Assembly: GCF_017348835.2 (NCBI RefSeq)
Contig: NZ_CP071375.1
Source: Escherichia coli
GTDB lineage: Bacteria > Pseudomonadota > Gammaproteobacteria > Enterobacterales > Enterobacteriaceae
Length of the DNA stretch: 64,000 nt
Direction: 5' to 3' (one strand)
This document shows positions 21,001 through 24,000 of this stretch, piece after piece. Position 1 is the first letter of the stretch. Each line of letters starts with the position of its first letter. Position numbers: made by a program.

Positions 21001-24000
21001 CGCGCCGGAAGCAATAACACCCAGGCCGATGCCCGGGAAAATAAAGGCGTTGTTACACTGGGCGATAGGGTAGATTTTATCTTTCCATACCACTGGATTA
21101 AACGGGCTGCCCGTGGCGACCAGCGCGTTACCTTCGGTCCAGGCGATAATGTCCTGCGGTGTGGCTTCCACGCGTGACGTCGGGTTAGACAGCGGCATCA
21201 CGATCGGACGCGGACAGTGTTTATGCATCTCACGGATGATCTCTTCCGTAAACAGCCCTGTCTGTCCTGAGACGCCAATCAGAATATCTGGTTTTACATT
21301 GCGCACCACATCCAGCAGTGACAGCACATCGCTGTCGGTATCCCAGTCACTGAGGTTTTCGCGCTTCTGCACCAGTTTGGTCTGGAAAGGCAGCAGGTTC
21401 GGCATCTTGTCGGTCAGCAGGCCAAAGCGATCGACCATAAAGACTTTCTGCCGCGCCGCTTCCTCGCTTAATCCTTCACGCTGAGTCTGGGCGATGATCA
21501 TTTCGGCAATGCCGCATCCCGCTGAACCTGCGCCAAGGAAGACGATTTTTTTCTCGCTTAACTGACCACCTGCCGCGCGGCTTGCTGCGATCAGGGTGCC
21601 GACTGTTACCGCCGCAGTGCCCTGAATGTCATCGTTAAAGGAACAAATTTCATTGCGATAGCGGTTAAGTAACGGCATCGCATTTTTTTGTGCGAAGTCT
21701 TCAAACTGCAACAGCACGTCCGGCCAGCGTTGTTTCACAGCCTGGATAAATTCATCAACGAATTCATAGTATTCGTCGTCGGTGATACGCGGATTACGCC
21801 AGCCCATATACAGCGGATCGTTAAGCAGCTGTTGGTTGTTGGTGCCGACATCCAGCACCACCGGAAGGGTATACGCCGGGCTGATGCCGCCACAGGCGGT
21901 ATAGAGCGACAGTTTACCGATCGGAATGCCCATCCCGCCGATGCCCTGGTCACCAAGCCCCAGAATACGTTCACCGTCAGTCACCACAATCACTTTGATA
22001 TTATGGTTTGGTACGTTTTGCAGAATATCGTCCATATTGTGGCGGTTCTGGTAAGAGATAAACACGCCGCGTGAACGGCGGTAGATCTCAGAAAAACGCT
22101 CACAGGCTGCGCCGACGGTTGGGGTATAAATAACAGGCATCATCTCATCAAGATGATTGTTTACCAGACGGTAGAAGAGGGTTTCGTTGGTGTCCTGGAT
22201 GTTACGCAGGTAGATGTGTTTGTCGATTTCGGTTTTGAATCCCTGATACTGGATCCATGCTCGTTCCGCTTGTTCTTCGATGGTTTCGACCACTTCCGGC
22301 AGTAACCCCAGCAGGTTGAAGTTACGGCGTTCTTCCATGCTGAAGGCACTGCCTTTATTCAACAACGGAAATTCCAGCAGTACAGGGCCAGCGTAAGGGA
22401 TATAAAGCGAACGCTGTTTTTTTGTTTTTGGTTCCATGTCACTCACTCTTTTTTGAATATCCATCCCTGGCACGCTTTTATCGTCTTTGCTTTACCGCCA
22501 GGGCGTCGGCCCCAAGTATAAAGCAGATAAAAACAAAAACACCATTGCGCAGGCAATGGTGTTTAATCGTCATTGAGGACTGATGGTTATGAATTACTTT
22601 TCAGCGGGGCGTTTTCTGCCGGTTGGGTTATTTACCACGCTGGATTTGTCACCTTCGGTAACTATTTTGCGCTGGTTAGAAATTTTATGGTCCAGTCCAA
22701 GAATATGACGTGCCTGACGGTTCGATTTCATTTTAACTCCTCAATCCTGTTGCTAGTTTTAAGGACAACATCGCCGTAGCGAAGAAACACGTGCTAAACC
22801 CCTAAATTAGGTTGCCGATCAAGCATAGCACCTTAAAGCGTAGGGTGCTGGCCACTGACCACATAATTGATCGTTTGCTGGTAGATATCACTGAGGATGT
22901 CGTTATCAGAAGCTTCCACCCATTTGGTCAGCTCCATGAGAATGTCATCTTCAGTGACAACACCGTGCTCTGCCCGAAGGCCTTGCTCAATGGCATTAAC
23001 CTGAGCGGGTTCTGCTGTTGAATTTTCTGCCTGATAATAAGTAAACATAGTGATTCTCCGTGTCTGTGTATTTATGGTGTCTGCTACGGATCGCAGATTT
23101 ATAAAGCACATTCAGCATGGCAAATATTTGCCGCTTCGTTGTTAAGATTAGTCCTGGTTGATGATTTTTATATTTTAACCCCATGATATTGATAGGTATT
23201 ATTATTGTGATGAGTTGATTAATATTGATGCAATCTCTCTTGAGATATATATTTCAGGTTATCTATTGTGGGAATTTAATTTAAGTGCAGAAGTAATATT
23301 TTCGCCGTATTTTATTCGGAATATCCTGCTTATCCTCGTGCGGTTTCTCACGTAGTCTATAATTTCCTTTTTAAGCCCACAGGAGAGCAACAATGACAAT
23401 CCATAAGAAAGGTCAGGCACACTGGGAAGGCGATATCAAACGCGGGAAGGGAACAGTATCCACCGAGAGCGGCGTGCTGAACCAACAGCCGTATGGATTT
23501 AACACGCGTTTTGAAGGCGAAAAAGGAACCAACCCTGAAGAACTGATTGGCGCAGCGCATGCCGCATGTTTCTCAATGGCGCTTTCATTAATGCTGGGAG
23601 AAGCAGGATTCACGCCAACATCGATTGATACCACCGCCGATGTGTCGCTGGATAAAGTGGATGCCGGTTTTGCGATTACGAAAATCGCACTGAAGAGTGA
23701 AGTTGCGGTGCCGGGTATTGATGCCTCTACCTTTGACGGCATCATCCAGAAAGCAAAAGCAGGATGCCCGGTCTCTCAGGTACTGAAAGCGGAAATTACG
23801 CTGGATTACCAGTTGAAATCGTAAAGCATTGCCGGATGACGCGTCATCCGGCGAACACTTACTGCGCTACCCAACCGCCATCCATATTCCACGCCACCCC
23901 ACGCACTTGTGCTGCCGCATCCGAACAGAGAAACAGCGCCAGTTCACCCAGTTGTTGCGGAGTCACAAATTCACGAGAAGGCTGTTTTTCTGCCAGTAAG

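Follow-up and report, generated by a model that had tools for sequence, protein, structure and literature searches.

Enterobacterial regulatory upstream ORFs (uORFs) and leader peptides alter the expression of the genes that follow them, as for mgtL-mgtA and, through unmasking of a start site, for secM-secA. Several small proteins of Escherichia coli, in turn, have been described in their own right. Sra (also S22 or RpsV) is, according to PMC9959377 and PMC6904343 (the latter citing Izutsu et al. 2001), a basic protein of 45 aa that associates with the ribosome in stationary phase. SafA is a single-pass membrane connector protein that binds and activates PhoQ, and the safA-ydeO operon is regulated by EvgA (PMC5706723). 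The far smaller YddY was detected in K-12 by chromosomal SPA tagging (VanOrsdel et al. 2018, PMC6001520), and transcription of its gene is PhoQP-dependent at low Mg (PMC11429745).

The window, by which we mean the whole 64-kb stretch of E. coli chromosome that was analyzed, is matched by strain PE164 at 99.99% identity and has its K-12 equivalent at about 1.535-1.589 Mb; owing to a 2-bp difference inside gadB, coordinates above 44574 are those of PE164 minus 2. Comparisons were made among 6-7 E. coli strains that diverge by a few percent, including K-12, O157, MSB1_8B, MSB1_6C, EC9682 and AR_0006, while the corresponding locus of APEC 102026 (L007) was unusable for this purpose on account of an IS-element rearrangement beside narU. 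Protein families were assigned with Pfam and NCBIfam models and RNA families with the Rfam 15 covariance models at gathering and permissive thresholds, and the ORF track had a cut-off of 60 aa. In the RefSeq annotation of PE164, sra, bdm, safA and yneP occupy the equivalent positions, and the K-12 record has yddY in addition. The features discussed below are collected in Table 1.

Table 1. Coordinates of small genes, associated signals and conserved segments in the 64-kb window
Feature	Position	Strand	Basis or description
narU-proximal conserved part of the narU-espR1 gap	8668..8840	-	presumed narU promoter and 5' region
sra intrinsic terminator	22527..22564	-	12-bp stem, 4-nt loop, T-run; stem 22564..22537
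sra (rpsV)	22594..22731	-	45-codon ATG ORF, exactly the annotated gene
sra Shine-Dalgarno	22737..22742	-	GAGGAG, 5 nt upstream of the ATG
bdm, upstream neighbour of sra	22833..23048	-	71 aa; PF10684 (E 4.7e-51) and annotation
yddY	40707..40748	-	13-codon ORF in the dosC-digH gap (40670..41045); stop 37 nt before the dosC ATG
yddY Shine-Dalgarno	40752..40756	-	AGGAG; block with ATG invariant in 6 Escherichia sequences
yneP	53087..53209	+	40 aa; annotation, known; overlaps the ydeM 5' end on the opposite strand
ydeO intrinsic terminator	56388..56420	-	8-bp stem with 5 G-C pairs, then T-run; in the ydeN-ydeO gap
safA	57304..57501	-	65 aa; annotation and PF17073
12-codon extension upstream of safA	57502..57537	-	outside the gene; makes the 77-aa ORF
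EvgA-box-like inverted repeat upstream of safA	57613..57630	+	1 mismatch to TTCYTACANNTGTARGAA
Promoter-like site	60258..60231	-	immediately downstream of the EvgA-box-like repeat at 60272..60289
EvgA-box-like inverted repeat upstream of ydeP	60272..60289	+	1 mismatch; in the ydeP-ydeQ gap

At least four real genes in these 64 kb are hidden or misrepresented when the cutoff is set at 60 aa: sra (45 aa), yneP (40 aa) and yddY (13 aa), and also safA, whose start is misplaced. Spurious or over-extended ORFs are displayed instead of them. We are highly confident that the finding amounts to this, i.e., small E. coli genes that have already been described and were concealed or misrepresented by the cutoff; the three remaining intergenic regions that had been singled out as possible hiding places are best read as regulatory DNA. 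As sra, safA and yddY are all known, the finding is correct but ordinary. Its practical value is for annotation only, and automated annotation by PGAP still misses yddY outside the curated K-12 record, omitting it in PE164 and in the other sampled genomes.

The original prediction had placed a gene of 45 codons on the minus strand, unlisted at the 60-aa minimum, and an ORF of this length was found there with exactly the boundaries of the annotated gene. The names that it gave to this gene and to safA are upheld by the family models and by the RefSeq annotation of the near-identical and K-12 records. For Sra, that annotation is WP_000841554.1, which lies at the same coordinates in PE164 and is present in all five of the other PGAP-annotated strains that were examined, with an identical translation in K-12. 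The protein scored 108.2 bits against PF08136 (cutoff 25, E 2.6e-31), with residues 1-44 of 45 covered, and 74.5 bits against the NCBIfam equivalog NF007473 (cutoff 35, E 6.6e-21). Among the seven strains, four codons of sra carry synonymous differences and none a non-synonymous one, leaving the protein identical; these few polymorphic sites suggest that the reading frame is under purifying selection. The predicted pairing of the Shine-Dalgarno sequence (SD) with the anti-SD (-8.8 kcal/mol) is the strongest of the ATG-initiated candidates in 22438..22832. The terminator is invariant in sequence in the seven strains and folds with z = -3.88, a value that none of 200 shuffled sequences equalled. 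The gene order bdm-sra-maeA, with bdm upstream and maeA downstream of sra, is common to the window, K-12 and five other strains. In comparison with K-12 sra/rpsV (b1480), the window has the identical 45-aa protein, the same neighbours, SD and terminator, and differences in the gene that are synonymous only. The segment 22594..22731 is the known E. coli gene sra, and there is nothing new here on Sra.

Other signals at this locus were set aside. The sole ORF of at least 60 aa that lies over sra is a 68-aa frame with a TTG start on the opposite strand (22573..22779, +), which we read as spurious, and the neighbouring bdm appears in the ORF list as an over-extended ORF of 92 aa. A match with one mismatch to the PhoP box upstream of sra (22784..22800) is at chance level, since about one such match per window is estimated, and a search of the window for the PhoP box (KGTTTANNNNNKGTTTA) with 3 mismatches was uninformative, returning 213 matches.

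It had also been claimed that safA was present only as an over-extended ORF. That claim is correct because the last 65 codons of the listed ORF of 77 aa (57304..57537, -) are those of SafA. The protein scored 157.7 bits against PF17073 (cutoff 27, E 7.2e-47), its residues 1-65 aligning with positions 1-65 of the 66 in the model. The longer ORF is a strain-specific over-extension, because the ATG that opens it (57537..57535) is ATT in five of the six other strains (K-12, O157, MSB1_8B, MSB1_6C and EC9682). It is very improbable that the true safA product is instead the 77-aa protein initiated at this upstream ATG (57537). The frame is open from that codon in the window and in strain AR_0006, but the ATT of the other five strains argues against such a start, as do the end-to-end alignment of the 65-aa version with the Pfam model and the annotation of safA as 65 aa in both RefSeq and K-12.

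As a gene of 65 codons, safA is intact in the seven strains; six of its polymorphic codons have synonymous changes only and nine have an amino-acid change. Inspection of the translation by eye shows a single central hydrophobic segment at residues 22-40 (VIVVVLLLTLTLIAIFSAI), and ydeO is the next gene on this strand, 74 nt further downstream. An inverted repeat that resembles TTCYTACANNTGTARGAA, the EvgA box consensus, lies some 110 nt upstream of the safA ATG; allowing up to three mismatches, just two matches to this consensus were found in the whole window, both upstream of known EvgA targets. With K-12 safA (b1500) the gene shares its length, the hydrophobic segment, its place upstream of ydeO and the EvgA box, whereas four amino acids differ (V22 in the window for A22, G44 for S44 and a C-terminal RD for QG) and the upstream in-frame ATG is absent from K-12. 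None of this alters what is known of SafA. A sequence search of the PDB with Sra and SafA as queries gave zero matches.

The suggestion that four intergenic regions might hide further small proteins or sRNAs stood for one of them and not for the others. The four intervals are exact annotated gaps, lying between narU and espR1 (8668..8990), dosC and digH (40670..41045), ydeN and ydeO (56067..56467) and ydeP and ydeQ (60029..60361). In K-12 they correspond, in this order, to 1544061-1544383 (narU-yddJ), 1567141-1567503, 1582525-1582925 and a gap that runs from 1586487 onward. The second contains yddY, and the other three yielded no evidence of a small protein or an sRNA. Judging by the 6-7 E. 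coli strains and by consensus scans, these three gaps appear to encode nothing. The narU-espR1 gap would comprise the narU promoter and 5' region, the ydeN-ydeO gap the ydeO terminator together with the AT-rich region upstream of ydeN, and the ydeP-ydeQ gap the ydeP promoter, accompanied by an EvgA box and, presumably, a long leader.

That at least one of the three encodes a small protein still to be described is unlikely in our estimation. Their length (323-401 nt) and their presence in 98% or more of the complete genomes of E. coli count in favor of such a protein, and there is a candidate in the form of a 24-codon ATG ORF at 8891..8817 in the narU-espR1 gap. However, this ORF is intact in none of the six other strains, its ATG being ATA in K-12 and MSB1_8B and its frame being broken by one-nucleotide and 12-nt indels, and it was rejected. 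Neither the ydeN-ydeO nor the ydeP-ydeQ gap contains an ORF with both a good SD and an ATG. In ydeP-ydeQ, zero ORFs of at least 8 codons pass even a lenient SD filter, and of the two weak ORFs that pass it in ydeN-ydeO, one is antisense and the other overlaps with the terminator of ydeO; the ORF 56409..56522 is intact in three of the six other strains. The three gaps have no PGAP annotation in the sampled genomes, nor is a small protein listed in them in the curated K-12 record, into which the results of several ribosome-profiling and tagging studies have been incorporated. On the other side stands the observation that a detectable protein was obtained from 45% of tested E. coli sORFs regardless of their conservation (PMC6001520). 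Because small-protein conservation and detectable synthesis showed little correlation in that study (VanOrsdel et al.), small ORFs that are not conserved could still be translated.

It is also unlikely that a small regulatory RNA is encoded in one of the gaps, either free-standing or derived from a UTR, for which the 3' end of ydeO, the long leader of ydeP and that of narU are examples. Neither a dedicated promoter nor a dedicated terminator is required for an sRNA that arises by UTR processing. In favor of this reading, ydeO ends with a good intrinsic terminator, a type of 3' end that is often the source of Hfq-binding sRNAs; the ydeP leader would be about 190 nt long and contain hairpins if the promoter-like site next to the EvgA-box-like repeat is used; and the narU-proximal 170 nt of the narU-espR1 gap are conserved, pi being 0.023 there and 0.092 in the distal part (8841..8990), where indels of 10-12 nt also occur. 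Against it, diversity is near neutral in both ydeN-ydeO and ydeP-ydeQ (0.045 in the former vs 0.041-0.056 at the 4-fold degenerate sites of the flanking genes), and the hairpins of the ydeP leader carry substitutions that do not compensate for one another. Likewise, no promoter and terminator were found paired on one strand within any gap, the counts of such sites were not above those in shuffled controls, and the K-12 annotation has no RNA gene in the gaps. Rfam, which detects described families only, left all four gaps without a match at E ≤ 1; at this threshold its sole match in the whole window was the SECIS element in fdnG. The window also yielded no tRNA or tmRNA genes.

Upstream of dosC, the peptide encoded by yddY, its SD and its distance to dosC are identical to those of K-12 b4746. 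What is new is that the initiation site of yddY is conserved across Escherichia and its reading frame is not. The initiation block (TTCAGGAGAATATG) is invariant in six Escherichia sequences, and the ORF that follows it has 13 codons in E. coli, three in E. whittamii and in representatives of two further Escherichia species (which have TAA vs TTA in E. coli), and two in E. albertii. In the other Escherichia species sampled the peptide was not found to be conserved, and the region upstream of dosC was not alignable in Citrobacter, Kluyvera, Enterobacter or Trabulsiella. In two of 12 sampled E. coli genomes the frame is shifted by a 5-nt deletion, which results in a variant of 20 aa, and the O157 peptide has a Cys-to-Arg change. 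The 3' half of yddY is conserved as nucleotides even where it is untranslated. Since the start is invariant but the ORF is reduced to 2-3 codons outside E. coli and frameshifted in some strains, the pattern suggests a uORF in the dosC leader and not a conserved peptide.

It is possible, and we propose it tentatively, that yddY is a translated uORF in the dosCP leader whose initiation site functions in cis on dosC, the 13-aa product being incidental. The conservation pattern is in favor of this reading, and neither deletion nor overexpression of yddY had a phenotype (PMC11429745). In addition, the stretch at 40774..40761, immediately before the SD of yddY, is complementary over 14 bp to the dosC start codon region (-19.8 kcal/mol, p ~0.007 vs shuffles). 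Against these points, the invariance of SD and ATG may stem from the closeness of the species compared or from a promoter that overlaps the block, and yddY is a putative part of the dosC leader, no usable dosC transcription start having been found in the literature. The long-range helix, for its part, has no covariation (the covariation term from RNAalifold was positive), is broken in E. albertii and in strain E69 and is absent in other genera, and the fold of the whole region is insignificant (z = -1.8).

A more specific form of the uORF reading, to which we give little weight, is that the conserved unit upstream of dosC is a translated mini uORF at which ribosome loading controls the translation of DosC-DosP. 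The ORF, of 2-3 codons in the other species, would have been lengthened to 13 codons in E. coli by a TAA-to-TTA change, and to 20 codons in some strains. Loading of ribosomes at its start, on a PhoQP-dependent transcript, would then control DosC-DosP, an oxygen-sensing pair of diguanylate cyclase and phosphodiesterase; one possible mechanism is that such loading opens the 14-bp helix over the dosC start codon. If this were true, Mg2+/PhoQ signalling, which is stimulated by SafA (safA lies 17 kb away), would be tied to c-di-GMP turnover via yddY. The resemblance to leader-peptide uORFs lies in the very short length of yddY, its strong SD, its location on the same strand 37 nt upstream of a larger gene, and the conservation of its initiation site but not of its peptide. 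Unlike at mgtL-mgtA and secM-secA, the effect of yddY on dosC is putative and the candidate masking helix lacks covariation support. The pattern at yddY bears on whether very short proteins considered validated act as peptides or as cis-acting uORFs. The long-range helix itself is notable in E. coli and E. whittamii, and we keep it only as an idea of low probability.

Several additional candidates were rejected. Three ORFs on the plus strand, none of them convincing, have too few substitutions to be judged: 42366..42458, intact in five of six strains and antisense to neighbouring genes; 45758..45811, intact in all strains, with a GTG/TTG start and also antisense to neighbouring genes; and 14089..14166, intact in all strains and with a GTG/TTG start. 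For the hairpin that follows digH (41028..40994), in which a compensatory change had been considered, we make no claim of covariation, because the two substitutions sit in adjacent pairs and not in the same pair. One further known protein below the cutoff, YneP, which has been detected by SPA tag (PMC6001520), was absent from the original prediction.

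The original prediction held that the 45-codon gene sra goes unlisted at a 60-aa ORF minimum and is found only by translating the minus strand, and that safA is visible only as an over-extended ORF; for both genes the observation was confirmed and the interpretation supported. As a guide we used the RefSeq annotation of the K-12 record (NC_000913.3) and of PE164, a near-identical E. coli strain, verified on the sequence. At the 60-aa minimum the sra locus shows a single ORF, which runs antisense to sra at 22573..22779, starts with TTG and would encode 68 aa; we read it as spurious. 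Several lines of evidence establish the 45-codon ORF as a genuine gene: its product scores 108 bits with Pfam PF08136 ("Ribosome hibernation factor SRA"; cutoff 25) and 74.5 bits with the NCBIfam equivalog NF007473 (cutoff 35); the Shine-Dalgarno (SD) motif GAGGAG, predicted to pair with the anti-SD at -8.8 kcal/mol, lies 5 nt before the ATG; a terminator, a 12-bp stem plus T-run, stands on the 3' side (z = -3.9, none of 200 shuffles folding as well); the same protein, WP_000841554.1, is given by the PGAP annotation of PE164 and five other strains; and the four codons that are polymorphic among seven strains, K-12 among them, differ synonymously in every case. Of 5,426 complete E. coli genomes, 5,413 matched a 3-kb query around sra; in PE164 the identity was 100%.

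Sra (S22/RpsV) is a 45-aa protein of crude ribosome fractions (PMC6904343) that is bound to ribosomes, along with Rmf, Hpf and RaiA, as stationary phase begins and is lost in step with Rmf, its precise role being described as poorly understood (PMC9959377). A comparison of its sequence with PDB chains gave no match. On the minus strand at 22784..22800, 53 nt upstream of the sra ATG, is a PhoP-box-like direct repeat, GGTTTAGCACGTGTTTC, with one mismatch to the consensus; it is probably meaningless, because by our estimate about one such chance match is expected per window.

The safA gene forms the last 65 codons of a listed 77-aa ORF, and SafA matches PF17073 end to end (157.7 bits, cutoff 27). 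The 12 extra codons are an accident of the window's strain, because the ATG that opens them reads ATT in K-12 and in the comparison strains O157, MSB1_8B, MSB1_6C and EC9682. The gene is uninterrupted in all seven strains compared and has evolved faster than sra: of its polymorphic codons, six are synonymous only and nine change the amino acid. The central hydrophobic segment is mostly kept. When the whole window was searched, allowing up to three mismatches, for the EvgA box consensus (TTCYTACANNTGTARGAA), only the two candidate boxes listed in the table were found.

Coordinates of the features in the window
Feature	Coordinates	Strand	Remarks
SECIS element, fdnG selenocysteine codon	14789..14847	+	Rfam RF01989, 84 bits
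sra	22594..22731	-	exact coordinates of the 45-codon ATG ORF
osmC-ddpF block	23859..30604		3-hydroxybutyrate dehydrogenase, GntP permease, 3-hydroxyacyl-CoA dehydrogenase, thiolase, CoA transferase subunits A and B, LysR regulator
yddY	40707..40748	-	identical to K-12 ORF; AGGAG 3 nt from ATG; ends 37 nt before dosC start codon
yneP	53087..53209	+	40 aa; detected in K-12; overlaps ydeM 5' end on opposite strand
ydeO intrinsic terminator	56420..56398 plus T-run		opens ydeN-ydeO gap
safA	57304..57501	-	65 codons; listed ORF 57304..57537
Candidate EvgA box	57613..57630		upstream of safA; 1 mismatch to consensus
Promoter-like site	60258..60231		ydeP-ydeQ gap, just downstream of candidate EvgA box
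Candidate EvgA box	60272..60289		upstream of ydeP; 1 mismatch to consensus

It had also been suggested that four intergenic intervals might hide further small genes, and this was correct for 40670..41045 (dosC-digH), which holds yddY, known in K-12, and unsupported for 8668..8990 (narU-espR1), 56067..56467 (ydeN-ydeO) and 60029..60361 (ydeP-ydeQ). All four are gaps between annotated genes, and at least 98% of complete E. coli genomes have each of them. In the narU-espR1 gap the 170 nt adjoining narU are conserved (diversity, pi, 0.023), and the distal part is at least as variable as silent sites (pi 0.092), with indels of 10-12 nt. The one minus-strand ATG ORF of any length there (24 codons, 8891..8817) was rejected: K-12 and MSB1_8B lack its start codon and it is frameshifted elsewhere, leaving it intact in none of six strains. 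Beyond the ydeO terminator the ydeN-ydeO gap is AT-rich (32% G+C), has on the gene strand no ORF with an ATG and a good SD, and varies at the neutral rate (pi 0.045; 4-fold degenerate sites in ydeO and ydeN give 0.041-0.056). No candidate ORF in the ydeP-ydeQ gap passed even a lenient filter, and substitutions in its hairpins were not compensatory; if the promoter-like site in this gap is used, the ydeP leader would be about 190 nt.

The four gaps gave no Rfam match at E <= 1, the only match in the window being the fdnG SECIS element, and promoter-like and terminator-like sites were not commoner in them than in shuffled sequence. In all 20 gaps that are 60 nt or longer, ORFs of 10 or more codons that have an SD were sought and compared with six further E. 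coli strains; the scan picked up sra, bdm, yddY and yneP, and no new candidate was convincing. The power of this negative result is limited, because the strains diverge by only a few percent and conservation predicts small-protein synthesis poorly (PMC6001520). Among strains yneP is highly variable (two polymorphic codons synonymous only, ten with an amino-acid change); its frame in the window has in-frame stops in EC9682 and MSB1_8B, where a 41-aa "hypothetical protein", WP_122083086.1, is annotated at the equivalent position in its place.

The K-12 record annotates yddY (b4746, 13 aa) in the dosC-digH gap, and PGAP annotates nothing there in PE164 or in 14 genomes sampled across the identity range. 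The peptide has been detected by chromosomal SPA tagging (PMC6001520) and is of low abundance (bioRxiv 10.1101/511675); transcription of yddY shows PhoQ-dependent induction at low Mg2+, and neither deletion nor overexpression gives a phenotype (PMC11429745). All four genes (sra, safA, yddY and yneP) have been described in E. coli, and the case illustrates how length cutoffs for ORFs and automated annotation continue to overlook such small genes. Every membership feature tested was found in the window copies of the four genes, with the single exception of conservation of the YddY peptide beyond E. coli.

The evolutionary pattern of yddY, an old start site with a loose ORF, is a new, if small, observation of this analysis. 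DosC was used to fetch the locus from one genome per species, and the 150 nt upstream of dosC were compared; the Escherichia set included E. whittamii, E. albertii and two more representatives of Escherichia species, labelled E. coli by NCBI (SCPM-O-B-8794 and E69), with the region at about 2365..2515 in loci L010, L011, L012 and L018. The SD and ATG block, TTCAGGAGAATATG (within 40707..40756, minus strand), is invariant in all compared Escherichia representatives. Outside E. coli only three codons precede the stop (ATG GTG CNN TAA), and in E. albertii only two (ATG ATG TAG); the TAA of the others corresponds to TTA in E. coli proper, and the 13-codon ORF is specific to E. coli. Variation in the region peaks in the 20 nt beyond this site, where indels occur whose lengths are not divisible by three; the 3' half of yddY is kept as nucleotides even in genomes where it is untranslated. 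Within E. coli, the C-terminus is altered and the ORF lengthened to 20 codons by a 5-nt deletion near the yddY end in two of 12 genomes examined, and O157 has a Cys-to-Arg change. Together, the short ORF outside E. coli, the variation within it and the invariant SD and ATG mark the 13-aa peptide as young and loosely constrained and its initiation site as old. In Citrobacter, Kluyvera, Phytobacter, Enterobacter and Trabulsiella the segment upstream of dosC was not alignable.

A conserved initiation site with an unconserved peptide suits an upstream ORF that acts in cis within the dosCP leader, a role for yddY that we consider possible but rather unlikely, and the pattern is also compatible with mere conservation of an overlapping promoter across short evolutionary distances. 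A 14-bp complementarity with three G-U pairs links 40761..40774, just upstream of the yddY SD, with 40655..40672 in the dosC start-codon region (both minus strand). The helix (-19.8 kcal/mol in E. coli, p about 0.007 versus shuffles) is also significant in E. whittamii, is broken in E. albertii and E69, and is absent from other genera; the fold of the region as a whole was not significant (z = -1.8), and the helix showed no covariation. A mechanism for yddY and dosC that would act through this helix is unproven.

Several differences among strains were observed at this locus. The stop codon of the 20-aa variant, carried by PapM-36-2 (L090) and JNE131328 (L092), overlaps the dosC ribosome-binding region. 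EC9682 (L006, about 35268..35504) has a deletion from the yddY 3' end into dosC that removes the dosC start and leaves a C-terminal fragment alone; this strain is also without the whole ddp operon, and dosP therefore adjoins osmC. The gap in the window carries a 12-nt tandem duplication, AATTAACCACGC x2 (40928..40951, minus strand), of which K-12 has one copy.

The window as a whole corresponds to PE164 2504843-2568842 at 99.99% identity (four mismatches and one 2-bp gap) and to about 1.535-1.589 Mb of NC_000913.3. The 2-bp gap sits in gadB at 44574, past which window coordinates are the PE164-derived ones minus 2; PE164 has an extra TA at this position and its gadB is annotated as frameshifted, and the window gadB should be intact, the extra TA being that of PE164. 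The PE164 record annotates three pseudogenes at positions equivalent to window 10688..12835 and about 34460..36010: one for an LRR protein that is truncated, one for an ompC-like porin that is frameshifted, and ddpA, interrupted by an internal stop. The seven-gene block between osmC and ddpF is not present in K-12, and a 3-kb query extending into it was at least 80% covered in only 227 of 5,426 genomes. An intact RelE/ParE-family (HigB-like) toxin gene precedes yddM (HigA-type antitoxin) at 18848..19410 on the minus strand; K-12 has yddM without the toxin partner and about 400 nt of differing sequence between fdnI and yddM, an interval that in other strains carries an IS200 element.
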